The notes: generated by a model from the letters alone, not told the origin. Numbered from the stretch's first letter, positions 44,130 through 57,991 are shown. The stretch: 64,000 nt of DNA from Armatimonadota bacterium (GCA_016235455.1 JACRKZ010000018.1:66524-130523), one strand, 5' to 3'. A program made the numbers and translations.

Positions 44130-44155
44130 GGGCGACCACAGAGGGTCGCCCCTAC
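44130..44155 (-). repeat. GTAG-family REP element overlapping the exbD stop codon
   Basis: Minus strand GTAG-GGGCGACC-CTCTGT-GGTCGCCC. Confidence 0.75.
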
Positions 44156-44658
44156 GGGGCGGTCGCCGGCGCCGCCGGCTGCGGCGGTGCTGGCGCGGCA
44201 GGAGCCGGCGCCGCCGACGGGGCGGCCGCCGTGGCCAGGCAGGTATTCGGCATGCCCGCGCTGAGCGCGGCATCCATCGCCGACACCAGGTACTGGCCGG
44301 TGGTCTCTTTGTCCATTTCGATGATGACCAACTGCTGCGGGCTCTTGGCCACGGACTTGAGCTGGGCGCTGAGCTGCGCGGGCGCCACGTTCTGTCCGTC
44401 CACCGAGAACTGGCCCTCGCGCGAGATGGCCACGCGGATACCGCCCAGGGCGTTGAGGTCCTCGACGTTGGAGGCCGAGGGCAGGTTGAGGTTCATGCCC
44501 TGGTCCTGGCGGTTGATGAACTGCGCGGTGACCATGAAGATGATGAGCAACACGAGCATCACGTCGGTCAGCGGCGTGATGTTGATCTCGGTGAAGTTGC
44601 CGTAGCGCGACGACCGTCGCCGGCCGCCACGGCGGGATCTGGTGCCTCCGATGGCCAT
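44152..44658 (-). CDS. exbD: Biopolymer transporter ExbD/TolR
   Basis: EINITPLTDVMLVLLIIFMVTA, LNLPSA; Pro/Ala-rich tail. Confidence 0.9.
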   Translation of the reverse strand: MAIGGTRSRRGGRRRSSRYGNFTEINITPLTDVMLVLLIIFMVTAQFINRQDQGMNLNLPSASNVEDLNALGGIRVAISREGQFSVDGQNVAPAQLSAQLKSVAKSPQQLVIIEMDKETTGQYLVSAMDAALSAGMPNTCLATAAAPSAAPAPAAPAPPQPAAPATAP

Positions 44659-44661
44659 GGT

Positions 44662-45276
44662 TCAGCTCCTCTTGGGCGCTTCCAGTAGCGAGCAGACCTC
44701 GTCGCCGGCCAGGTCCATCTCCAGCGAGAAGTGGTCCACGGCATTGTTGAGCACGTTGTAGGCGATGACCGAGACAATGGCCAGACCGAGGCCGACGGCG
44801 GTGGCCACCAGCGCCTCGGAGACGCCCTTGCCGACCACGCCGATGCCGGCGTTGTTCTGCAGGCCGATGGCCTGGAAGGCCTTCTGGATGCCGATGACCG
44901 TGCCGAACAGACCGATGAACGGCGCGGTGGCGCTGATCGTGCCGAGCACGTACAACCGCTTCTCCAGCAACGCCGACTGCAAGGCCTTCATGCGGTCCAG
45001 CGAGGCATGGAGTTCGGCGGGCGTGCTGTGCTCGACGGTCATCAGCGCGTGGCGCACGACTCGTACCACGGGTCCGCGGTAGGCACCTGTGGCTGTCGTC
45101 GCCTCTTCCAGCCCACCCCGCCGCAGCGCCGCGGTCACATCGTCCAGCAACGCCTCGCGGTTGCAGCGCGCGGACGCGAAGTACACCGCGCGGTCGATGA
45201 TGACCGCCACGGCGGCGATAGAGCAGAGAACCAGGGGCCAAATGGACACCCCGCCGTCGCGCAACAACTGGAACAT
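44662..45276 (-). CDS. exbB: ExbB/TolQ proton channel family protein
   Basis: LGTISATAPFIGLFGTVIGI, GVSEALVATAVGL; GGAGG SD before ATG 45276. Confidence 0.9.
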   Translation of the reverse strand: MFQLLRDGGVSIWPLVLCSIAAVAVIIDRAVYFASARCNREALLDDVTAALRRGGLEEATTATGAYRGPVVRVVRHALMTVEHSTPAELHASLDRMKALQSALLEKRLYVLGTISATAPFIGLFGTVIGIQKAFQAIGLQNNAGIGVVGKGVSEALVATAVGLGLAIVSVIAYNVLNNAVDHFSLEMDLAGDEVCSLLEAPKRS

Positions 45277-45352
45277 CGAGACCTCCGCGTACCTTCGGAT
45301 TGGACACCGAACGGCGTTCGAGGTTCCGTGGTGGGCGGCGGAGTCGACCGCG

Positions 45353-45691
45353 CTATCGACCTGCCGCGCGACGGCGCCGGAGCCGGCGGAGCGCCCACAC
45401 CAGCAGCAGCGTCGCTGGCACCAGGCTGAGCAAGCCGACATCGGCGGTCATCCAGCCCCATGCGTCCAGGATAACCAGCTCCCCGCGGATGGGCGTCGGC
45501 GCGGGCCGGTGGATGGCGCACCAGCCGCCACCCAGCAACCAGACGACAGCCACCGACGCGCAGCCGATCTCGTCGCGCCGGCCGACGAACTCGGGCCTGC
45601 GACGGGTGCCACAGTGGCCGCACACCGTGGCTCCGCCGTCCATCGACGCGCCGCAATGGCCGCAGGTTGTCGTCGTGTCCTCGCCTATCAC
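45353..45691 (-). CDS. Small zinc-ribbon membrane protein
   Basis: CGHCGA...CGHCG followed by two hydrophobic segments; 10 nt downstream of the DUF4132 gene. Confidence 0.65.
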   Translation of the reverse strand: MIGEDTTTTCGHCGASMDGGATVCGHCGTRRRPEFVGRRDEIGCASVAVVWLLGGGWCAIHRPAPTPIRGELVILDAWGWMTADVGLLSLVPATLLLVWALRRLRRRRAAGR

Positions 45692-45701
45692 GCCGCCCTG
45701 C

Positions 45702-48700
45702 TCAGCCGCGAATCGCCGACAGAATGCTCGGGTCCTTGATCTGCTCGTCGCGCGCCAGCATCAACACCTTGGAGAGCACCTCAGCCGTCTTCGGATCATC
45801 GTCGGCAAACGGCAGGAACAGCCGCCCGCGATGCTGGCTGTGCACTGGCACGATGAACAGCATCCCGCCGGGCATCTTGTGCGTCACGGCGCTGCCCAGA
45901 TGCACCGAGTACTTGCCGAAGTGGCCGTCGATGTAGACATGCCGGTCCTCGGCGCGCACGTTCTCGATGCCCATCAGCGCGCACAGCTCGCGCAGCAGCA
46001 TGGCACGCAGTTCCACGGTGCTGGCCGTGGCTTCGGGGTCGACCCCGCCGCGATGGGCTACGCTGACCACCAGGTCGAGATCGCGCATGGCCTCTGAGAA
46101 GATGATCGGCGGCACCTCGGCCAGCGGCACGGGCTGCCATTCGCCACGTTTGGCGAAGTGGACCGACTCCAGCGTCAGGCCCTCCACCTCGGCGGGCGTC
46201 CAGAACGGCTCGGCGAACTCGATCCACGCCGACAGCCCTGCCTCGTGCCAGGTGCGGCGCACACCGCCTTCGGGGTCATGCACCCACCCCCGCCCGCCGA
46301 GCAGTGCCAGTGCCTGGCGCGGCTGCACCTGATGCCCCGCGTAGCGCCGCGTGCCGCCGCTCTCCTCGCGTTCGGTCTGGGTCAGTGGGTAGAGCTCGCG
46401 GAAGATCTGTTTGAACGGCTGCACGCGCTGGGCGGCGAAGCACTCGTGCTGCCACTGGTGCCACTCGCCGCCGGCCAGCAGGTCCACCGGATGGGCCAGC
46501 CGCACCGGCTCGTCGTGGCCCAGCGGATGCAGCGCGCCGGCATGGTCGCGCAGGGCCCGACCGCCCTCCGCGGGATAGCCGGCAATACCCTCGCCCAGCC
46601 ACAGGAGGCCCGTCAGCGACGGCGCGAGCAGCGGGTGTTCCAGCAGGTCGCCAAGCTCGCGGCCTCGGAAGACGTCGCCGCGACACATCGACTGCTCCAG
46701 CGCGCCCTTCATGCGCGAGGCGGCGCGGTCCAGGCTCGTCTTGCGCGCCTTCAGCTCTGCCACGGCCGGGTCTTTGCCCACCGGGCCGGGGATCGACTTG
46801 AGTGCCTTGCCGGCTTTGGTGGCGGTCAGCTCCGGCCGGCCGTCGGCGCTTATGCTCAGCGCCACGCTAGTCTCGCCGACGGTGACCGTCACCGGCCCGG
46901 CCTTGAGGTCGGCCACGGCGCGGGCCTCCATGGCCCACTGCAGACGTAGCGGGTCGGGGTAGCCGGCGGTGCGGGCGAGGTTGTCCAGTGCCACGGCGCA
47001 AGCACGCTTCTCGCTCTCCTGGCGTTGCGCCCCGAACTGCCGGGCCGTGCGCTGGAACTCGGCGATGATCTCATAGCGGGCCAGGACCTCGGGCTCACGC
47101 GCGTCGCCCTCGGGCAAAGGCACCAGGCCCAGCGCCCGCAGCGAGTCCTGGTTGCGCTTGTCGGTGACGCGCGCGCGCAGGTCGTCCGCGGCGGCCCGAC
47201 CGAGCATGGCGTCGGCATACAGCTTGGCCCGCGCATGTCCGGTGCCCGACGAGCCAAACTTGGCCGCGTCGTAGAGGTGGCGGAAGCGCTGCTCGCCCAG
47301 CGTGGCGTGGACCTTGCCGAACCAGGCCACATCCACGGCGCCGTCGAGCAGGTCCTGGCTGGTCAGGGGTGTGTGCTCGGTGACCTTGGCCGCCCAGGCC
47401 GAGCGGATGTCCTCGGCCATCTCCCAGCGATTGTCCTTGGTATGGGCATAGAGCCACCACACGCCGGACTCGAACCCCTCCCAGCCAAGCGCAGCGCCCA
47501 CATGCGCGGCCCACTGGGGCGCCAGCAGTGCCGCGTCGCACAGGAGTTGGTCGGGCAGCCTGGCGGTGCGCAGTGCGTCAGCGGTGGCGTCGACGGTATC
47601 GGTCTCGGCTGGGAAGCAGCCGCGCAGCACGCCGCTGAGCACACCGCCCTTGCTCTCATCGCCCCAGGCAGCCCGCCGGAAGCCATCCTTGCCCAGGCTG
47701 GTCAGGATACGCAGTAGCGTGGCCGCGCCGCGGACCGTGCTGATCGACTTCACGTAGGCCGTCGCCGGCGTGGGCCGGTCACCCCGCGCCAACTCGATGT
47801 CGAGCAGGCGCGCACACGCGCGTTCCACCAGCGGCCTCAGACCCGGCGACCCGGCCAGGTCCAGGGTCAGGTTGCGCTGGGTGCAGGCGTGGAGCCACTG
47901 CGCATGGCCCTGGGCCGGGCCGACGAGGTAGTCAAGGATGTCAGCTTCGCCGATGGCGCCGGCGTCAAACGCCGCCAGGGCGTCGGCGAACTCCGGGCGG
48001 TCGCGGGGGACCTCCGCCGTCGGGTCATCGTCATCGTCGTCGCTCGCGACGCGGGCCACCTTGGCCAGCAGGCGGCTCACCTTGCCCGTGAGCCGGGCGG
48101 CGGCGCCGTGGCCGCCGGCGGCGATGGGCTGGCCCAGCCACACCTGCAGCTGGAACAGGCGCAAGCGCTGCTCGGGGCTCCAGGCCGCCTGGTCCAGTCG
48201 CCGGTGCGCGCCACAAGGCCCGACGAGCGGCCGCTTGAGCATGCGAATGGCCGGCTGACCCCAGCCCCAGAACTCGCGGTGCGGCCGTCTGGCGTCATCA
48301 GGGACGGTGTGCATGGCTGTCTCGGCCGCGTCCAGCAACCACTGTGACGTTGCCGCCGCAGGCGGCGGCGCGAGCGCCATGAGCCAGTTGAGGACCGGCA
48401 CCAGCCACCGGATCCAGTCGTTGTCACGTGGCGGTCGCTCACCGATGAGGCCAGCCAGCCAGGACTTCAACGGCTTCCAGGACGGCCCATCCACATAGGC
48501 CAGCTCCGCGCCGAGCCCGGCAATCCACCAGGCACGCGCCAGTTCCAGGCCGTCGGCGTCGCGCATGGCCGCGGGTCGCCGCGCATACCAGTCCAGCCAC
48601 ACGTCCATCAGCGGCAGCTTGTCGGCGGTCCGCTCGGCCGCGGGCAACGCGACCGGATCGCCATGGCTGGGATAAGCGGACGCCAGCGGCTCGGTGCGCG

Positions 48701-50687
48701 GCCCTTCCCAGGAGTCGAAAGTCACAGGTGTCTCGGCATGTTCGGCCAGCTTGGCCAGAAGGCCCTTGATCAGCGCATGGGCCGCCGGCGTGGCCAGCGT
48801 CGCCAGCACCCGTCGCGGCTCGACGCCCGGTGTCAGCGTCGCCGGGTCGTACAGCCCGAACCCGTTCTCCGGCCCCAGCACCACGGCACTGGCGCCCGCC
48901 AGGTGATCGATGTGAGCCTGCTCATCGGCGGTCAGCGTGTCGCGGCTCTCCCGGTACGCCGTCGCCACAGCGCGGCAGCGGTCGGCCTCACGCTGGGCGG
49001 TGGCCAGTTCGCGTAGCAGTTCGAGCCCCGCCAGCCGTTGCAGCGCATCCTTCGCGCCAGTCAGCCGCTCGGCGCTGGCCAAGGCGGCGGCATCGGCCTG
49101 GTTGAGCAGCAATTGCAGGCAGGCGCGCCGCAGGTCCGTCGCCTTGCGGGTCAGCAGTGCCTCGATCTGCTGAGCCTCCGACGGCTCGATCCTGGCGCCC
49201 TTGAGCTTGTCCAAGGCCTTCGAACGTACATCGGCGGAGGCGTCACCCAACATGTCCAGCAGGAAGGCGCGCACCTTCGGCCGCGATGTCTCGCCCTTCT
49301 TCACGTCATCCACCAGGTGCCGCCGCATGGATGGGTCGAACTGCGTGGCCAGCGGGATGATGCGTTCGATCGGTCGTTTGCCGCGGCACTCGATGAGGGG
49401 ATAGGCCGCATACGTGGAGATGGCCTCCACCTCCCACCAGGGGTAGACCAGCGCCGGCAGCGTCGTCTTCTTGGCCGGCAGGCGCGGCACCAGCGCTTCC
49501 AGCCGCTCGAACAGGTCGGTGGTCTCCAGCCCTTCGGTGTCGTGCATGAGCGCCTGCGCCGCCGAAACGGCAACACGCAGATCCTCGTCGCTCAGCGCGG
49601 GGATGAGCGACCGGTTGGCCACGTTGATGCCCAGCGTCTGCAGCAGCTTGGCGGCGACAAACCGCTTCTCCACGTGGTCGTCGACCAGGTATGTCTTGGC
49701 GCGCTCGATGGCTGCCACGGCATCGCTGAAGGCAAGCGTCCACAGCGCCAGATGGAAGTCGCCAGGGTCGTCGCCGGCCAAGGCGGCCTCGCGAGCGGAA
49801 TCATCTTCCTGGAAGGCCAGCGTGCGCCCGATGGCCTGCTCCACCTCCCGCTGGGCCAGCGCCTCGTAGCCAAAGCCGAACCACACATCGGCCGCGCGGA
49901 TGGTCGCCGAGAAGCGCGCCAGGCCGTGGTCCAAGATCAACCGCAACAGGCGCCGGAAGCACTCGGGATGCGCTTCGTCGATGCGTTCGAGGATCGATTG
50001 CCGCAGGCCTTCCTCGCGTTGCGCGGCGAGCAGCAGTCTTTCTACACACTCCCAGCCCTCGGGACGCGAGCAGGTGATCAGCGCGCGGATGACATGCTCG
50101 CCCATGACACCGATCTCGTGCTCGCCGTTGGCCGATTCGATGAGGATGCGCAGGACCTCCTCGCCTTCGGCACCGCCGGCATCGATGGCGCCCGCCAGGA
50201 CGAGGCCCACTGTCTGGTCGAGCACCTGCCCGCTGGCCAGGTGCGGACCCCAGGCGGCCAGCCAGGGTGCGCCGACGTTGTACTCCTCAGTGGCTGAGGC
50301 CAGCATGAACAGCCAGCGGAACCGCGCATTGGCGTAGAGCGTTGGCGCGGTGGGCGCACGGAAACTGCGCCTGATCCAGCCCGTCTCGTAGACGCCCCGG
50401 CCGATGAGCTGCCAGGCCTGCTCGACGGCGGGCACCATCTGGGGCCACAGCGCGGTGAACAAGGCCCGCCGGTCGCCGTCGGACAACTCGGTCAGCGCCT
50501 TCAGCGCCGCCTCGCGCTTCTTCCCGCTGCCGAACATCGCCAGCAGCGCTCGGTCCTGGCCGCCCAGCGCGTCGGCAATGTCGCGCGCGCCGCCCGGCAG
50601 CTTCTTGGCCAGCGTGGCACGCTCCTTGACCCATGCGGACCGCTTGAACTGCTCCAGTCGTGTCTTGGCTTCTTCGGGCGTCAACAT
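45702..50687 (-). CDS. Giant HEAT-repeat / DUF4132-type protein (copy A, 1661 aa)
   Basis: QREEGLRQSILE, HEAT-like repeats, [80 protein letters not shown]. Confidence 0.85.
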   Translation of the reverse strand: MLTPEEAKTRLEQFKRSAWVKERATLAKKLPGGARDIADALGGQDRALLAMFGSGKKREAALKALTELSDGDRRALFTALWPQMVPAVEQAWQLIGRGVYETGWIRRSFRAPTAPTLYANARFRWLFMLASATEEYNVGAPWLAAWGPHLASGQVLDQTVGLVLAGAIDAGGAEGEEVLRILIESANGEHEIGVMGEHVIRALITCSRPEGWECVERLLLAAQREEGLRQSILERIDEAHPECFRRLLRLILDHGLARFSATIRAADVWFGFGYEALAQREVEQAIGRTLAFQEDDSAREAALAGDDPGDFHLALWTLAFSDAVAAIERAKTYLVDDHVEKRFVAAKLLQTLGINVANRSLIPALSDEDLRVAVSAAQALMHDTEGLETTDLFERLEALVPRLPAKKTTLPALVYPWWEVEAISTYAAYPLIECRGKRPIERIIPLATQFDPSMRRHLVDDVKKGETSRPKVRAFLLDMLGDASADVRSKALDKLKGARIEPSEAQQIEALLTRKATDLRRACLQLLLNQADAAALASAERLTGAKDALQRLAGLELLRELATAQREADRCRAVATAYRESRDTLTADEQAHIDHLAGASAVVLGPENGFGLYDPATLTPGVEPRRVLATLATPAAHALIKGLLAKLAEHAETPVTFDSWEGPRTEPLASAYPSHGDPVALPAAERTADKLPLMDVWLDWYARRPAAMRDADGLELARAWWIAGLGAELAYVDGPSWKPLKSWLAGLIGERPPRDNDWIRWLVPVLNWLMALAPPPAAATSQWLLDAAETAMHTVPDDARRPHREFWGWGQPAIRMLKRPLVGPCGAHRRLDQAAWSPEQRLRLFQLQVWLGQPIAAGGHGAAARLTGKVSRLLAKVARVASDDDDDDPTAEVPRDRPEFADALAAFDAGAIGEADILDYLVGPAQGHAQWLHACTQRNLTLDLAGSPGLRPLVERACARLLDIELARGDRPTPATAYVKSISTVRGAATLLRILTSLGKDGFRRAAWGDESKGGVLSGVLRGCFPAETDTVDATADALRTARLPDQLLCDAALLAPQWAAHVGAALGWEGFESGVWWLYAHTKDNRWEMAEDIRSAWAAKVTEHTPLTSQDLLDGAVDVAWFGKVHATLGEQRFRHLYDAAKFGSSGTGHARAKLYADAMLGRAAADDLRARVTDKRNQDSLRALGLVPLPEGDAREPEVLARYEIIAEFQRTARQFGAQRQESEKRACAVALDNLARTAGYPDPLRLQWAMEARAVADLKAGPVTVTVGETSVALSISADGRPELTATKAGKALKSIPGPVGKDPAVAELKARKTSLDRAASRMKGALEQSMCRGDVFRGRELGDLLEHPLLAPSLTGLLWLGEGIAGYPAEGGRALRDHAGALHPLGHDEPVRLAHPVDLLAGGEWHQWQHECFAAQRVQPFKQIFRELYPLTQTEREESGGTRRYAGHQVQPRQALALLGGRGWVHDPEGGVRRTWHEAGLSAWIEFAEPFWTPAEVEGLTLESVHFAKRGEWQPVPLAEVPPIIFSEAMRDLDLVVSVAHRGGVDPEATASTVELRAMLLRELCALMGIENVRAEDRHVYIDGHFGKYSVHLGSAVTHKMPGGMLFIVPVHSQHRGRLFLPFADDDPKTAEVLSKVLMLARDEQIKDPSILSAIRG

Positions 50688-50689
50688 GG

Positions 50690-51118
50690 CTACGCTCCCG
50701 CGAGCATGACGAGGCGCACGAACAGAATGGTGCTGTCCGCGCGTACAAACACTTGATCATCGAGCCGGTGCTGCTGCGCACCGTCGATGAAGACCAGGTA
50801 GATCCCATCCTCGAAGCACTGCCAGGCCGTGCCAACCGCCTGTTCCTCGGTGACGCACTGCTCCAGGTCGCGGCCGCCGGAGTCCACCTTGCCACGTTCC
50901 GCGCCCTCGGCGATCTGCTGGGCGGTCAGCGCGCGATGCAGCCGACGCGCCTCGGCGCGAGTCTGGAAGGCGATGACCTCCCAGCGCACGATGACGGCGA
51001 TGAGGTCGCGTAGGCGCACGGCGCCGTCGCCGCGCCAGAACTCGGGCGGCAGCGGCACATCGAAGTCGGGGACCAGCGCCCGCCGGGCGCCCGGCAGCTT
51101 AGCCGATACGGTGGCCAT
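50690..51118 (-). CDS. Small DUF4132-associated protein, candidate ubiquitin-like (beta-grasp) fold
   Basis: 142 aa, ends [36 protein letters not shown]; 2 nt from the DUF4132 start. The fold is an inference. Confidence 0.75.
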
Positions 51119-51303
51119 GGCGTCACCTGTCGCCAACCATTGTAGCCCGCACCGCGCAACGTTCGCCACTGTATCGCGCCGTGCCCAGAGGGCCCGGCGA
51201 GCCGGCGCAAAACACAGTGGCACGCCGGCCTTGGACGAGGCAGACTGGCCTCAAAGTGGAACCGGGCACCGGACCAAGGAGCCCGGTCAGAGGGAGCCAT
51301 ACA

Positions 51304-51969
51304 ATGCGCAGACGCGCGGGTTTCACGCTCATCGAACTGCTGGTCGTGATCGCCATCATCGCGATCCTGGCCGCCATCCTGTTCCCTGTCTTCGCCAAGG
51401 CCCGTGAGAAGGGCCGCTCGGCCAGTTGCCTGTCCAATCTGCGGCAGATCTCCACCGGCGTGACCATGTACACGCAGGACTACGATGAGAACTACTGGGC
51501 CTACTACTACTTCGGCAACCAGCTGTGGTCGGTCTACATCGAGCCCTACCTGAAGAACCGCCAGGTGTTCATCTGCCCGTCGACCATCAACCAGCCCACC
51601 GTGGGCGCCATCGGCTCGGCCAAGCAGCAGTACAACTTCGGCGGCATGTTGGGCAGCTACGTGTGGAACGGCAATTTCTACGGCGCCAACAACCTCAACG
51701 GCATCCCTGATGCCTCGCTGGCCAACAAGCAGGAGCCGTCGCGCACCTTCTTGTTCGGTGACGGCATCTGGGTCGACAGTTGGCCCGACCCGGTGGCCGA
51801 GGCGTTCCCACCCGCGGGCTGGACGGTCAACGGAGTCAACACGCCGATGGGCCGCATCTGCGTCGACCGCCACTTGGGAGGGGTGAACGTCGCCTTCTGC
51901 GACGGGCACGTCAAGTGGAGCACGTACCAGGGGCTGTGGAACTTCTGGTACCACAGCACGGGCCCCTAA
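51304..51969 (+). CDS. Prepilin-type N-terminal cleavage/methylation protein, DUF1559 and H-X9-DG motif
   Basis: [36 protein letters not shown]; [17 protein letters not shown]; GGGAG SD. Confidence 0.9.
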
Positions 51970-54900
51970 AGCTCGAGCGACGTCGGGCCGCGTAGCATGG
52001 CCAGGAGCGCTGGGTCACAAATGTCCTGGTCCCTGGCCAGCAGGATCACCTTGGACAGCACCTCGGCGGTCCGCGGATCATCGTCGGCAAACGGCAGCCA
52101 GGGCGTGCCCCGACGCCCCTGCGCGGCCGGCACGATGGGCAACATGCCGCCGTCGCGGCGATGGGCGTGGGCACTGCCCAGGTGCACCGTGTAGGACCCA
52201 AGCTGCCCATCGACAAGCACAAGGGCGCCCTCGACGCGCACATTGGCCAAGCCCATGAGCGCGCTGGTCTCGCGCACCAGCGCGGCGCGCATGGCCATGG
52301 TGGACAGCGTCGCGTCGGGATTGGCCGGACCGCGGTGCGCCACGCTGACCACGAGATCCAGGTCGCGCATGGCTTCGCTGAAGACGCGCGGCGGGGCGTC
52401 GGCCAGCGGCACCTGGCGCCAGTCGCCGCGCCGAGCAAAGTGCACGCCGGCCAGAGTTAGGCCGTCGAGTTCCGCCGGCGAGAAGAACGGCTGCTCAAAC
52501 GTCACCACGGCCGACAGCAGCACGTCGTGCCAGGTGCGGCGGTATCCACCGTCGGGATCGCGCGCCCAGCCCCGTCCCACCAGCAGCGCTACGGCCTGCC
52601 TGGGCTGCAACTCGTGGCCCGCGTAACGGCGCGAAACCTCACCGTCCTCGCGCTCGCCCGCGGTGAGCGTGTAGAGCTCGCGGAAGACCTGCCGGAACGG
52701 CTGCACGCGCTGCGCCGCGAAGCACTCGCGCTGCCACAGGTGCCAGTCACCCGCAGCCAGCAGATCGGCCGGATGCGCGATCCGCACGACCTCCTCGTGT
52801 CCCAACGCCTGCAGGCCACCACCGTGGTCGCGGAGCACGCGGGCACCCTCGGCGAGGTAGCCCATCGCGTCGTCGCCGCGCCACACCAGCCGGCTGAGCG
52901 CCGGCGCCAGCATGGGATTCCCCAGTAACTCGCCCAGTTCGCCGCCGGTGAAGCCATCGCCGCGGCACATGGCTGCCTCGAGCGAGGTGCGCATCCGCTC
53001 CGCGGTGGCCAGCAACTCGGCCCGCCGCGCGCGCAGCGCCACCACCGCGGGCTCCTTGCCCAGCCGGGCCGGGATGCTGGCCAACGCCTTGCCGGCCTTG
53101 GCCGCGCCAAGCTCGGGCTGAGCGTCGTCGGTGAGGCTCAGCGTCACGGTGACGTCGCCCACAGACACGACCACGGGTCCCGCCTGGAGGTCGGCCACGG
53201 CGTGGTCTTCCATGGCCCAACGCAGTCGCACGGCATCGCTGTAGCCGGCGGTCCGCGCCAGATTGCCCAGCGCCACGGCAGCGGCCAGTCGCTCGCTGTC
53301 GCGGCGCTGGGGGCCGAACTGCCGCGCCGTACGCTCAAACGCGATGATCGTCTGGTAGCGCGCGAGCAGCTCCGCCGAGCGGTCCTGGCCGTCAGGCAGC
53401 GGCGCCAGGCCGAACGCGCGTAGCGCGTCCTGGCTGCGCCTGTCAGCCACGCGCGCCGAGAGCTCGGCCAGGCCGACGCGGCCCAGGATGGCGTCGGCGA
53501 ACAACCGCGCTCTGGGGCAGGGCTTGGCAGCCTTGTAGAGGAGATCGAAGCGCTTGGCGCCCAGCGTCTGGTGCATCTCGGCGAACCAGGCAACGTCCAC
53601 TGCGCCATCCTGGCGCTCGTCGGCCGAGAGCTCGGTGTGGCGAGACGGCGTGTCGGCCCAGGCCTCGACGGCCTCGGGCACGCGGCAGGGGCCCCACTGG
53701 CCCGCGTGCCCCAGGAGCCAGGCCACGCCGGACACGAAGCCCGGCCAGTCGAGCGCCGCGGCGATGTGCTCGGACCACTGCGGCGCCACGAGCGCCGCCT
53801 GGCACAGGACGCCTTCGGCCAGGCCGGCGGCGCGGATGCGCTCGGCGCACGCGGCCGGCGTCTCGGCGGCCGCAGGGCGTGTCTTGCGCAACAGGCTGGT
53901 CAGCGCCCCGCCGCGCGTGGCGCCGTAGTCAGTCAGGCCCCGCGGGCCCTCCTTGCCCAGCCCGGCCAGGAGACGCAGGGCGTTGCCCACGCCGACGATG
54001 ACGTCCATGGCATGCAACCGGGCCGAAACCGGGGTCGGCCTGTCACCGCGGGCCAGTTCAACGGTCAGCAGGCGCTCGGCAAGACGCTGCTCGGCTGCCT
54101 GGTACACCGCCTCCTTCGCCAGATAGGGCGACTCGAAGTCCGCGCCGAGAGCGGTCCAGGTCGATGCGCCACGCGGGTCATAGTGCAGCAGCCGCGCCAC
54201 GAGATCCGCATCGCCCACGGCACCGGTGGCCATGGCGCCGAGGAGCAGGTTCAGCGGCGCGTTGTAGCGCCAGGCGTCGTCCCTCGCAGGCTCAGTGGCG
54301 GTAAGCGCGGCGTGGCCGCCGCGGCCGCGCAGCAGCCGACTCAACAGGCCGGTGGGCTCGACTGGAGTCGACGTCGGCTCCAACGCCCACAGACTAAGCC
54401 GGTAGGCCCGGCCCAGGCGCTCGGCGTCCCATCCACCGGGGCACAACTCGTAGTGCAGTGCACACACCTGCATCGGCAGGCCGCGAGCGGACCGTGGCAG
54501 GACGGCCAGCGCTGCTTCGCTGGCCGCCAGCAGCAACTCGGCAGCGGACTCGGGCGGCGGCGGCACAAGGGCCAACAGCCAGCCGAGGATCTGGTGGCAC
54601 CACCACGACAGCAACTCAGGGAGGTCCGGCACATCGCGGCGGTGTGCGGGCACGCGCCACAGCCAGACGGCACGAGCCAGTTCCAGACCGTCGGTATCAC
54701 GCATGGCCGCGGGGCGTCGGTCGTACCAGTCGAGCCACATCGACATCAACGGGAAGCACTCGGGCGAACGCCGGTCGCGCGGCACCGTGACCAACGCTTG
54801 TCCGTAGGGGAAGGCCTCACTCAGGGGCATAGTCTGCTTCTGCCCGGATGCCTCGAAGGTGACGAGGGTGCCGGCGTGCTCGACCAGCAGCGACCGCAGG

Positions 54901-56852
54901 CTTGCGAGGAGCGCCGATGCCGCCGGACTGGCGATGTTGAGCTCCCGGCGCCGCGGCGCGAGCGGCTTGACCAGGTCGCCGGCTGTGTACAGACCATAGT
55001 TGTTGTCAGCCCCGTAGTCCGGCTCCGGAGTCGCGCCGAACCAGGCCAGGTGGGCCTGCTCGTCGGTGCTCGATTCGGCCTGAGCGGTCCCGTAGGCCCT
55101 GGCGGCTGCGCGGCAGGCCTCTTCCTCGCGGCCCGACGCAGCCAGTTCGCGCAGCAGTTCCAGACCGGCCAGCCGTTGCAGTGGCTCGTCGCCGGCCAGC
55201 AGACGTCGCGCGCTGGCCAGCGCCAGACCGTCATCCTGCCCAAGCAGCACCCGCAGCGCCGCGCTCCGCAGGTGGGCGTCGCGCTGAGCCAGCAGCGCCT
55301 CAACCGCCGGGGCTTCACTCGGCGCCAGCAGGGCCCCCAGAGCATTCACCGCCCCGATGCGCACCGACGACGACCGGTCGCGCAGCCGCTCGAACAGCCA
55401 GGCGCGCACCGCGGGGCGCTGCGCCTCGTCGCTGGTGAGCGCGCCGATCAACCGGCGTCGCGCCCCGGTGTCCATGCACTCGTAGCTGGCGATGAGCCGC
55501 TCGATGGGCCGGTCGCCGCGAGCGGCGAACAGCGCTGGCGTGAGGTCGCCGGCGCTCACGTCGATGGTCCACCAAGGGTAGAGCAGCGCCGGCAGCGTGG
55601 TCTTGCTGCGCGGCACGCGCGGCAGCAGCGCCGCCACGCGCTCAAACAGCTCCGGTCCGGCCAGGTCGACGCGGCGTTGTCCGTTGAGCCGGCTGAAGAA
55701 CTCACGAATCGTGCCGTCGGCGTGGTGCGTCACGAAGTGCGCCGCGGCCATGGCCACATGCACGTCGCCATCGGCCAGCGCCGGCACCAGCAGCCGCACG
55801 CACTCAGGCAGGCTGGCCAGGCGCAGGGTCATCACCGCCGCCAGCCGTTGCTCTGGCCGCGGCGCCGAGAGGAGGGCCACCGCCCGCCGGATGCCCTCGG
55901 GCGCGTCCAGATAGGCCTCCACCCACAGGGCCAGGTCCAGCTCGACCGCGTCCTCGCCGACCAGCGCCGCCTCGCGCGCACCGGCATCAGTCAAGTAGCG
56001 CCACAGGCGCTCCAGTGCGCTCTCGGCCTCGCGCTGGGTGAAGGCATCGTGCCCGTAGTGCAACCAGCGGTCCACGCGCTGCCGCACCGGCTTGAACCGA
56101 CACAGGCCGTGATCGATGACCGTACGCAGCACATGTGCGAAAGCCAACGGGTGGCCTTCGTCGACCCGGTCCAGGATGTCGCCGCGGTGCACCTCGTCGC
56201 GCTGGCAGGCCAGCAGCGCATGGGCCACGATCTGCCAGGCTTCGGGCCGCGCGCAGACAGACAGCGCCCGCACCACATGCAGGCCCATGCCGCCGATGGG
56301 ATGAGCGCCGGCAGCACACTCCGCGAGGGTGCGCAGCACCTGCTCGCCGTCCTCGCCGCCGACATCGATGCAAGCCGCCAACAGTGTGCCCAGCGCGTAC
56401 TCGTCGCCCAACCATACCGCCCAGGTGGCCAGCCAGGGAGCGTCGGCGTCGAACGGGCCCAGCCGCAGGGCCACTGCGGCCAACCAGTTCCACCGGGCCT
56501 CTTCGAACAGCTCGGGTCGGCCCGGCGCGCGGAACGAGCCGCGGTAGCCGCTCACCTCGTACACGCCTTGGCCGATCATCTGGTAAGCTTGCTCGACGGC
56601 CGGGTGCAGGTCCGGGAAGAGCGTCGCGAATAGCCGGCGCCGCAGCTCCCCGTCCAGCGCCGCCAGCGCCGCCACGTTGGCCGGCCCAACCGCGACCCGC
56701 TGCGCCACCGACAGGCCGGCTGCCGCGTAGAGCCGCCGGCAGACGTCGTGCGCCGGCCCAGGCAACCGCCGGGCTGCCGCGGCGACGGCCTGCGGTCGGC
56801 GAGGATCCGCCGCCGCGCGGAGTCTCTTGATCGCCTCTTGGTCAGAGAGCAT
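51966..56852 (-). CDS. Giant HEAT-repeat / DUF4132-type protein (copy B, diverged paralogue, ~1628 aa)
   Basis: Collinear with copy A from [11 protein letters not shown] (A: MLTPEEAKTRL) through [33 protein letters not shown] and [16 protein letters not shown]. Confidence 0.85.
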
Positions 56853-56998
56853 GTCGGTTCCCCCGTAGCCAACGTCGTTGCGCCACGGCATTCGGCGCCG
56901 CCCCGCCGTTCCCTGCTGTTACATAGCGCGCCGATCGAAGGACTTCCACCTGTCACGTCCAACCCTCCCGGCGACACTAAGCCGAGAGTGAGCTGAGC

Positions 56999-57991
56999 AT
57001 GACCGGTCTGGACCGTATCACCTGCGCTGTCAACCATCGCCAGGGCGACCGTTGCCCCATCTACCTGTGGGTCTTCGGGCAACCGGGCGTGTCCGAGGAG
57101 ATCAACGAGCGGTTCGGCTCGTTCGAGGCCTTCGCCGACCATCTCGACCTGGACATGATCCAGGCCTTCCCCGCCGGCGGGCCGTGCAACGGCAGCTACT
57201 TCCCACAGGACAAGGTGCAGAGCGACCCGACCTTCGGCAACGTGCTCGACATCGAGGATGCGCTGGAAGTGCGCTTTGGCGAGGTGCATGCCGAGAGCAT
57301 CTACGCGCCGCTGAAGCGCGCGGTGGAGGTGGACAAGGGCCGCAAGGGCCGGGCTGTGTGGGTGCAGACACCGGGCGTGTTCGAGGCCGCCAACGGCTGG
57401 CTGGGCCTGCAGAACCAGCTCATGGCGCTGGCGCTGACCCCGGAACTCGTGGGCCGGTTCTACCAGCGCATCGCCGACTGGTCGTGCGCCTATGTCGACC
57501 ACTGCGCCGAGTTGGGTGTCGACTGCATCCACATCTCCGACGACTGGGGCATGCAGAACGGGCTGCTGTTCCGGCCCGAGATCTGGCACCAGCACATCAG
57601 GCCCGCCACCAAGCGTATCGTCGACGCCGCCAAGGCGCACGGGCTGTGGGTGAGCCTTCATTCGGACGGTGATATCTCGTCGCTGCTACCGAACATCATC
57701 GAGCTGGGCTTCGACGTCTGCCACCCGCTCCAGGAGTCGGCCGGAGTCGACATCGCGCGGGTCAAGGCCGACTACGGTGACCGCCTGACCATGTACGGCG
57801 GCCTGGATGTGCAGGCCACGCTCGGTCGGCTGGACCGCGGCGGCGTGGCGGACGAGGTGCGGCGCGTCATGCGGCTGGTCAAGCAGGGCGGCGGCGCCAT
57901 CTTCTGCACCAGCCACATGGTCCAGCCTGGCACGCCCATCGACGATGTGCTGGCCGCCTACGACGTTGTGCACGAGGAGGCCACATACTGA
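56999..57991 (+). CDS. Uroporphyrinogen decarboxylase-family (URO-D/MtaA-like) protein
   Basis: DRCP, ISDDWGMQ, SLHSDG, HPLQ, GGLDVQ, TSHMVQPGTP. Confidence 0.88.
   Translation: MTGLDRITCAVNHRQGDRCPIYLWVFGQPGVSEEINERFGSFEAFADHLDLDMIQAFPAGGPCNGSYFPQDKVQSDPTFGNVLDIEDALEVRFGEVHAESIYAPLKRAVEVDKGRKGRAVWVQTPGVFEAANGWLGLQNQLMALALTPELVGRFYQRIADWSCAYVDHCAELGVDCIHISDDWGMQNGLLFRPEIWHQHIRPATKRIVDAAKAHGLWVSLHSDGDISSLLPNIIELGFDVCHPLQESAGVDIARVKADYGDRLTMYGGLDVQATLGRLDRGGVADEVRRVMRLVKQGGGAIFCTSHMVQPGTPIDDVLAAYDVVHEEATY

Follow-up and report, generated by a model that had tools for sequence, protein, structure and literature searches.

What does a small protein do when its gene lies directly ahead of that of a giant partner, and which part of the giant does it serve? 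The question is raised by a stretch of 64,000 nt (the window; G+C ~70%) from an Armatimonadota bacterium (GCA_016235455.1 JACRKZ010000018.1:66524-130523), in which a gene for a protein of 142 amino acids (aa) immediately precedes a 1661-aa gene carrying the Pfam domains DUF5724, DUF4132 and DUF7737. DUF4132 proteins are widespread, E. coli included, none has a known function, and all three Pfam domains of the giant are uncharacterised. No published function for DUF4132 was found in the full-text literature, and judged by title none of the papers on yehI, yehL, yehP or molR is a functional one; DUF5724 and DUF7737 do not occur among the literature matches listed. Based on the fold and family of the small protein, its pairing with the giant and a modelled complex, we propose that it acts as an obligate, non-covalently bound beta-grasp subunit, which completes or gates a conserved DUF4132-DUF7737 site, a reading to which we give a probability of roughly 0.55.

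The small protein and its family

A word-index search returned 143 relatives of the small protein, mostly 141-145 aa long, and a profile search of 1.84 billion cluster representatives yielded 1915 matches at E <= 0.001 and 829 at E <= 1e-10. The best 150 of the 1915 representatives are all <=221 aa in length, and most alignments reach the end of the protein; a search of proteins of 273-2000 aa found no fused forms, which is weak evidence. The family is large and has no model in the Pfam, NCBIfam and PADLOC copies searched. NCBIfam gave no match at all, and the sole Pfam match at E <= 0.1 is DUF6247 (E 0.019), under the cut-off. The ThiS/MoaD models of Pfam left the small protein unmatched, a profile search of PDB sequences gave no carrier protein, and the nearest clusters in the ESM Atlas are unnamed 'hypothetical protein' clusters.

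An AlphaFold2 (AF2) model built from a 30-sequence alignment has a mean predicted local distance difference test score (pLDDT) of 76.9 and a predicted template modelling score (pTM) of 0.68. It places strands at residues 2-7, 16-21, 107-111, 114-116, 122-124 and 130-135, a helix at 36-59 and a lower-confidence helical insert at ~60-90. When the model was compared with 48,161 PDB representatives, ubiquitin-like domains dominated the matches: the top one is MOCS2A/MoaD (Z 8.0 over 79 aa, root-mean-square deviation 3.1), followed by Pyrococcus MoaD, SAMP1 and ISG15 (each Z 6.3) and by ubiquitin, FAT10 and CysO (5.7-6.0), all of which lie in the grey zone of the tool (Z <= 8). Foldseek gave weak matches, with MoaD at E 0.47. 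We accept from the model that the small protein has a beta-grasp fold with a helical insert, as had been expected from the sequence, at a Z near 8 that belongs to the grey zone.

One outlier deserves mention. A 123-aa partial relative (L096 7946-8317, minus strand) matches only the C-terminal half of the profile and ends RLYPLEEP, and its genome has no DUF7737 match; it may therefore perhaps be a beta-grasp offshoot with a different partner.

Pairing of the small gene with the giant gene

In the window the stop codon TAG of the small gene (50692-50690) is followed by two bases (CC) and by the ATG of the giant gene from 50687. Its last codons supply the Shine-Dalgarno-like sequence for the giant, and the motifs quoted in the original prediction are all present in the sequence. 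A longer, 177-aa open reading frame (ORF) starting with GTG at 51223 was considered for the small gene and rejected. The G+C contents of codon positions 1/2/3 are 0.76/0.45/0.86 in 50690-51118, against 0.74/0.66/0.66 in the upstream extension 51119-51223, which is not coding-like, and the homologues start at the ATG of the 142-aa form; the latter is therefore the real gene.

A scan of one genome per species gave 135 relatives, from which 80 loci were kept. In 78 of them the giant comes immediately after the small gene, on the same strand, so the pairing foreseen by the original prediction is conserved and tightly coupled: with the first start codon taken, as a crude rule, for the start of the giant, 40 of the 78 have a gap of -4 to +6 nt between it and the stop of the small gene. 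The two exceptions are L001, whose contig ends 384 nt past the match and 372 nt past the stop of the small gene, and L045, in which an unrelated gene stands in place of the giant. One locus counted among the 78, L022, holds a truncated giant remnant only (the first 221 residues). In L022 as in L045 a 220-aa ORF comes after the small gene, which suggested a short partner; this idea was dropped, as the ORF of L022 is the truncated N-terminus of the giant (39% identity to residues 1-221) and that of L045 is unrelated.

A further view comes from a sample of 151 genomes of the phylum. The small protein was detected in 18 (22 places) and DUF7737 in 30 (35 places), and at 18 of the 22 small-protein places a DUF7737 match on the same contig and strand lies 2.5-5.2 kb further downstream. 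The remaining four comprise two places on broken contigs and two partial matches in a genus without DUF7737. When all ORFs of the 80 loci were compared with one another, no third recurring family emerged; the other large ORF clusters are out-of-frame or antisense ORFs within the giant.

The C-terminal module of the giant as partner

All three Pfam domains of the giant pass their curated cut-offs of 25, 27 and 27 bits: DUF5724 (E 2e-209, 699 bits), DUF4132 (4e-44, 151 bits) and DUF7737 (1e-34, 119 bits). Weak HEAT matches are also present, and residues 333-381 match designed HEAT-type alphaRep repeats in the PDB (E 5.6e-5). Which of these regions belongs with the small protein is indicated by divergent loci, ten of which were fetched from the phylum sample through weaker small-protein matches. 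At nine of the ten, the partner encoded downstream of a ~130-aa relative has DUF4132 + DUF7737 but no DUF5724; of the nine partners, seven are 810-870 aa long and <=10 nt from the small gene, and the other two loci look interrupted. The short partners keep only DUF4132 and DUF7737, and therefore the conserved partner is the C-terminal module and not the solenoid.

Upstream of 10 divergent DUF4132-DUF7737 genes, in turn, no ORF matched the small-protein profile, even at E < 1. The upstream genes at these ten are unrelated (arginyl-tRNA synthetase in three, PfkB kinase in one, a pilin-like gene in one). In three genomes a partnerless gene of the divergent, ~900-aa kind stands directly after an arginyl-tRNA synthetase gene (L100 4828-6546, L101 2350-4020 and L104 4694-4870), of which the L104 contig carries only the C-terminal end.

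The AF2 model of residues 1180-1661 has a pLDDT of 86.6. No clear fold match was obtained for the module. Its alpha/beta middle domain (model residues 264-370) resembles YugN (2r5x_B, 2pww_A; Z 7.8) and ZipA (Z 6.5), and DUF7737 is modelled as a helix, four or five strands, a loop and two helices. Foldseek matches of the module to biotin-protein ligases (E 0.12-0.4, template modelling scores 0.10-0.19) were not upheld, being absent from the best 50 rows of a second comparison. No match to viral structures (BFVD) reached E 0.001, the ESM Atlas gave no usable match for DUF7737, and in the PDB the module has no sequence relative, the giant matching only HEAT-type designed repeats.

A predicted interface on conserved residues

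Giant residues 1180-1661 (32-row alignment) were modelled together with the small protein (30 rows) in three runs and three controls. The interaction prediction score from aligned errors (ipSAE) was 0.74, 0.74 and 0.75, and 0.00 for the best of the three controls; the mark used for this score is reached by 116 of 157 solved complexes and by 2 of 215 mismatched pairs, and is a rough one here because custom alignments were used. The runs share >=91% of their contacts, with a partner pLDDT of >=73. The score is unlikely to stem from a remembered complex, because the module has no sequence relative in the PDB. It supports binding, without showing it.

The surest predicted contacts join the insert loop G76-V78 with E1431-T1436, and the last-strand segment F133-L139 with L1625-P-F1627 and A1635-K1640. 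Residues 132-142 of the small protein all fall within the predicted interface, as does the segment 1618-1629 of the giant, which is disordered in the monomer model. Are these contact residues conserved where a partner exists? We aligned the C-terminal modules of eight long partners, eight short partners, ten partnerless proteins and P0003, a paralogous giant encoded in the window. F1624, L1625, P1626, F1627, S1639 and K1640 are conserved in 8/8 or 7/8 sequences of each partner-linked group and not in the ten partnerless proteins. A second set, of polar residues, is common to all groups (H1399, Q1423, Q1427, R1430, E1431, Y1433, E1439, R1448, E1532, R1535, D1538, Y1593, S1599, D1631, D1647 and D1652) and likely represents the functional core of the module.

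Is the tail chemically active?

The family ends in F-[VIL]-R-L-x-x-L-[AST]-G-[GA]-stop. In the 80 loci the last two residues are GG in 44, GA in 33 and others in 3; among the best 150 representatives they are GG in 113 and GA in 15, the other 22 being mostly fragments and a few proteins with 1-4 extra residues, and all nine divergent short-type relatives end in GG. The C-terminal Gly-Gly of ThiS and MoaD is lacking in the window's own small protein, which ends Gly-Ala. Two Bacteroidota relatives, L111 1414-1833 (Bacteroides finegoldii) and L112 1389-1814 (Chondrinema litorale), have the tails LSGRLW and LAGSIW, which run three residues past the Gly to a final Trp, and a DUF4132 giant of ~1690 aa follows 37-65 nt downstream. 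The likeness to Gly-Gly tails on which the original prediction drew holds for most members, and fails for the 33 loci with a terminal Ala and for the two extended tails.

A tail of this kind could carry sulfur or an acyl group: in a small protein of MoaD/ThiS type, the terminal Gly/Ala would be adenylated and thiocarboxylated in trans by a housekeeping MoeB/ThiF-like E1, and the tail would deliver sulfur into a DUF4132-DUF7737 active site. The fold matches speak for it, with MOCS2A/MoaD at the top and SAMP1, CysO and Pyrococcus MoaD further down, as do the free C-terminus with GG in most members, the predicted contacts of the tail with the most conserved polar motifs of the module and two ThiF-family genes above the cut-off in the genome. 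At a single locus, that of Deinococcus radiodurans, genes for YeeE/YedE, thioredoxin, modA, thiS and thiazole synthase surround the pair. Pfam, however, finds no ThiS/MoaD domain in the small protein, the terminal Ala in 33 of 80 loci (the window's protein included) and the two tails longer by three residues do not suit a carrier, and the flanks show no recurrent E1, rhodanese or desulfurase gene. Among the matches listed there is no MoaE, ThiG or other known acceptor-enzyme fold, which says little either way, and moeA and moeB are not differentially expressed in the data excerpted from a Deinococcus preprint (bioRxiv 10.1101/2021.07.07.451423). We regard a carrier role as unlikely, though worth keeping in view.

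Could the giant itself do the chemistry? In a self-contained ubiquitin-like transfer system it would hold both activating and carrier functions, with DUF7737 resembling an E2 or ubiquitin E2 variant (UEV), and after stress the small protein would become covalently attached to targets or to the giant itself. In an E2, the ubiquitin tail is held at the post-sheet loop and the following helix, and the modelled last strand and GG or GA tail of the small protein lie on just these elements of DUF7737, whose order of helix, four or five strands, loop and two helices is also in keeping with the idea. Weak E2 matches of DUF7737 exist as well: Ubc7 (4jqu_A; Z 5.1, 92 aa, root-mean-square deviation 3.7), 8tyz_C, a chain of a bacterial E1-E2-ubiquitin-like (Ubl) complex (Z 4.5), and UBE2G2 (Z 4.4). 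These Z values are below the noise guide of the tool, and frataxin scores 4.4 likewise. None of the invariant or nearly invariant columns of DUF7737 is a Cys; the long type has a single invariant Cys, C1416 in DUF4132, which is replaced by Leu in 7/8 short partners and is not Cys in partnerless proteins. These observations argue against a thioester mechanism. Pfam detected no nucleotide-binding family in the giant, and neither a JAB nor any other deconjugating enzyme occurs in the window or among 124 flank ORFs, with PADLOC equally silent. Transfer of this kind is in our view very unlikely.

A related, broader possibility is that DUF4132-DUF7737 is a machine that handles a ubiquitin-like protein: DUF7737, as a Cys-less E2/UEV-like domain, would grip the GG/GA tail for chemical use (thiocarboxylate, adenylate or transfer) after DNA damage, in a neighbourhood devoid of canonical E1, E2 and JAB genes. 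We consider this quite improbable.

The genes needed for such chemistry do not travel with the pair. As the original prediction had stated, the window has no E1, E2, JAB, MoxR or VWA gene: none of its 36 other ORFs scanned matched ThiF/E1, E2, JAB, MoxR or VWA. An 'E1-E2_ATPase' match is the P-type pump KdpB. In related loci, E1, E2 and JAB are absent from the 124 flank ORFs of 26 loci.

Distribution and the question of defence

By record titles the loci belong to Planctomycetota, Verrucomicrobiota, Gemmatimonadota, Chloroflexota and Armatimonadota, and plasmid and secondary-replicon records extend the range to Deinococcota and Bacteroidota. Pfam annotation of the 124 flank ORFs (26 of the 38 full-flank loci) gave a heterogeneous picture of mostly metabolic or housekeeping genes. 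Does this distribution point to an anti-phage defence module, with the small protein as adaptor or trigger? The occurrence is patchy (18 of the 151 phylum genomes), spans several phyla by record titles and, in Deinococcus and Bacteroidota, extends to plasmids or large secondary replicons. The flanks vary among loci, and a few hold mobile or defence-like neighbours: AAA_21 and RlaP in L012, an SMC-like ATPase in L043, a resolvase in L041 and RhuM in L042. Against this, PADLOC returned 0 matches for four proteins (the small one, the two giants and the zinc-ribbon protein encoded downstream), most of the flank ORFs are of the metabolic or housekeeping kind, tblastn detected no phage homologue and BFVD no match at E 0.001, the window neighbours are ExbB/ExbD, a hydrolase, a pilin-like gene and URO-D, and all 13 plasmid records with relatives were typed non-mobilizable. 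A defence role is thus highly doubtful. As this estimate concerns the biological role and not the mechanism, it overlaps the other readings, and our figures for the proposed subunit, the carrier, the transfer system and defence need not sum to one.

In L041 (147-6431) DUF5682 and VWA_CoxE genes, a yeh-like set, lie upstream of the pair, and genes for a serine recombinase and PRiA4_ORF3 stand between this set and the small gene. The arrangement looks as though a mobile element had divided what was once a larger cluster.

The Deinococcus counterpart and DNA damage

The 412-kb replicon of D. radiodurans encodes a hypothetical protein of 134 aa with the C-terminus LAGG, whose gene stops 2 nt short of one for a 1626-aa DUF4132 protein. 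The small protein fits the family profile with a probability of 99.9 (E 1.8e-32), and the C-terminal module of its neighbour is 51.5% identical to that of the window. By gene order and domain content the pair would be the published drA0165-drA0166 operon (DR_A0165/DR_A0166). According to the excerpted text of the preprint (bioRxiv 10.1101/2021.07.07.451423), this operon is strongly up-regulated upon DdrO depletion and is not induced in irradiated irrE mutants, DRA0166 carries DUF4132, and DRA0166-V5 goes up after mitomycin C in an IrrE-dependent manner. The same excerpts describe E. coli MolR as a member of the LexA regulon and treat the drA0165-drA0166 genes as unknown, with no description of the small protein. 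A 17-bp palindrome, TTATGCTATTTACATAA (L107 2058-2076), lies ~60 nt upstream of the D. radiodurans small gene and fits the published DdrO control of the operon. The role in defence or stress response imagined in the original prediction therefore divides: defence finds no backing in the PADLOC, flank and phage searches, and stress draws support from the Deinococcus counterpart in the DdrO regulon only. We consider the pair likely to be an accessory, patchily distributed stress module.

The gene order around the D. radiodurans pair is as follows: YeeE/YedE and thioredoxin genes just upstream, and modA, thiD, a thiazole synthase gene and thiS downstream.

In the window's own genome, the lexA promoter (L108) has up to three CGAAC-N4-GTTYG-like boxes and the recA promoter (L109) one, which makes this sequence a candidate for the SOS box of the organism. 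As to expression, RNA runs matched a fraction of just 0.04 of the words sampled. A box with one mismatch at 51333 was set aside, as it is explained by the codons of the pilin-like gene for a conserved IELLVV motif.

A model for the pair

How might the two proteins work together? We propose that the small protein, co-translated with the giant, would pair with the DUF4132-DUF7737 module of the adjacent gene's product in a stable non-covalent complex. The insert loop around the invariant G76 would pack on the DUF4132 segment E1431-T1436, and the last strand and tail, FVRLVMLAG[GA], would run along F1624-LPF-ADDDP of DUF7737 and the next helix, A1635-K1640. These contact segments adjoin residues that are invariant in all DUF4132-DUF7737 proteins, and the small protein would therefore complete or gate a conserved site. 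The placement of the tail would be like that of MoaD in MoaE, with no ligation to targets, and the N-terminal HEAT-like solenoid of ~1250 residues may serve as a scaffold for a macromolecular ligand. We favour the non-covalent reading for three reasons: enzymes for activation, carriage or deconjugation are not found alongside the pair, Ala is a frequent last residue, and the tail is longer in some clades. The computations show the fold, the family, the pairing, the identity of the partner domain and the conservation of the contact residues by subfamily; that the proteins bind in the cell, that the tail lies as modelled, that no covalent chemistry takes place and what the pair does in the cell are what we infer from this evidence. 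The original prediction had cast the small protein as an adaptor or modifier for a solenoid with a conserved C-terminus. Of this, contact with the conserved C-terminal motifs through the tail is supported by the modelled complex; nothing demonstrates conjugation, and the partner is the C-terminal module.

Several points weigh against this model. The module can exist without a small partner: none was detectable at 15 of the 35 places where DUF7737 occurs in the phylum sample, P0003 included. The complex is a prediction, and its contacts do not place the terminal carboxylate. A fixed C-terminus, with Gly as penultimate and Gly or Ala as last residue, is what would be expected of an activated ubiquitin-like or sulfur-carrier tail, and a purely structural tail need not be under such constraint; the top fold match, MOCS2A/MoaD at Z 8.0, points the same way. 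The ThiF-family genes lie elsewhere in the genome and activation in trans is therefore possible. To complete or gate a site would be a function proposed for domains, DUF4132 and DUF7737, that gave no clear fold match. The DNA-damage link comes from one distant organism only, with the assignment to DR_A0165/DR_A0166 drawn from gene order and domain content. In the window itself there is no CGAAC-N4-GTTYG-like site at <=2 mismatches in 51100-51320 or 56880-57010, that is before either giant, and DNA-damage control is therefore not shown for its pair.

Relation to known systems

With MoaD-MoaE and ThiS-ThiG the pair shares a small stand-alone beta-grasp protein with a free tail of small residues, encoded beside its partner, and a tail predicted to lie on the partner's most conserved residues. 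Unlike MoaD and ThiS, the small protein has no profile match, ends here in Ala and has no E1 gene in its neighbourhood; moreover, its helical insert of ~30 residues gives half of the predicted interface, and it pairs with a protein of 1661 aa instead of MoaE or ThiG. Bacterial ubiquitin-like conjugation operons are of a different make-up: Bil/Bub-type E1-E2-Ubl-JAB sets, and Cap2/Cap3 of the cyclic-oligonucleotide-based anti-phage signalling systems (CBASS). They have in common with the pair a bacterial beta-grasp protein, a Gly-rich free tail and a patchy distribution. They differ from it in that the pair has no E1, E2 or JAB gene in the window or in related flanks, no PADLOC match, a single giant partner and GA or extended tails.

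YukD and TmoB are non-conjugated beta-grasp subunits that are stoichiometric in larger machines. This mode, a non-covalent ubiquitin-like subunit, is the one we judge likeliest here. The small-protein family is distinguished from them by its strongly conserved G-[GA] terminus, its own insert and a different partner family.

The closest parallel is D. radiodurans drA0165-drA0166, with the same two-gene architecture, a small protein ending LAGG and a 2-nt spacing before the 1626-aa DUF4132 gene; unlike that operon, the window has no comparable regulatory box. In E. coli, DUF4132 proteins of the MolR/YehI type associate with MoxR and VWA genes. The pair in the window has no such neighbours, in contrast to the yeh-type MoxR-VWA-DUF4132 cluster, and DUF5682 and VWA_CoxE genes lie upstream in only 1 of 26 loci (L041).

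What are the implications of such a pair? The model would give DUF4132 proteins their first defined partner together with predicted interface residues (FLPF, SK, the G76 loop and the tail), identifies the likely conserved core of the giant and ties the pair to a published DNA-damage regulon in a genetically tractable organism. The partner it describes is without precedent for a beta-grasp protein. Should the GG tail take part in chemistry, the pair would amount to a ubiquitin-like pathway that lacks recognisable E1, E2 and deconjugating enzymes; and if the giant is a machine for handling a ubiquitin-like protein, the pair would represent a new branch of prokaryotic ubiquitin-like signalling, found in at least seven phyla by record titles.

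Genes around the pair

The features of the locus are collected in Table 1. The pilin-like gene upstream of the small gene lies on the other strand, and the small gene and giant therefore have their own divergent promoter region, which presumably holds the promoter of the operon. The zinc-ribbon, ExbB and ExbD genes on the other side of the pair do not recur beside it in any of the 80 related loci.

Table 1. Features of the pair and its neighbourhood, in window coordinates
Feature	Position	Strand	Remarks
Small gene, 142 aa	50690-51118	minus	G+C at third codon positions (GC3) 0.86; stand-alone beta-grasp protein (ubiquitin/MoaD-like, from the model), helical insert ~residues 60-90, free C-terminus
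Shine-Dalgarno-like GGGAG for the giant gene	50699-50695	minus	Within the last codons of the small gene, 7 nt ahead of the giant ATG; direct sequence reading
Giant gene, 1661 aa	45702-50687	minus	Pfam DUF5724 + DUF4132 + DUF7737
N-terminal helical-repeat region (DUF5724/HEAT-like), residues 1-1253	46929-50687	minus	Missing from the short partners of divergent small-protein relatives
C-terminal module, residues 1180-1661	45705-47150	minus	Predicted docking site of the small protein
Order within the module: small beta domain, DUF4132, alpha/beta domain, DUF7737	DUF4132 46284-46811; DUF7737 45711-46013	minus	
Divergent intergenic region between small gene and DUF1559 pilin-like gene	51119-51303		No strand; frame plot and Pfam
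DUF1559 pilin-like gene	51304-51969	plus	Upstream of the small gene, opposite strand
Paralogous giant P0003, 1641 aa, DUF5724-DUF4132-DUF7737	51966-56891	minus	Pfam; contact signature WLPF + SK kept
Zinc-ribbon protein gene, 112 aa	45353-45691	minus	Begins 10 nt past the stop of the giant
ExbB gene	44662-45441	minus	After the zinc-ribbon gene, same strand
ExbD gene	44152-44658	minus	After the zinc-ribbon gene, same strand

In the genome the small gene occurs once and DUF4132 genes twice, P0003 being the second of these. P0003 has no small gene upstream, its upstream neighbour being a divergent URO-D gene, and its stop overlaps by 4 nt that of the convergent pilin-like gene. It keeps the WLPF and SK of the contact signature and could therefore share the single small protein.

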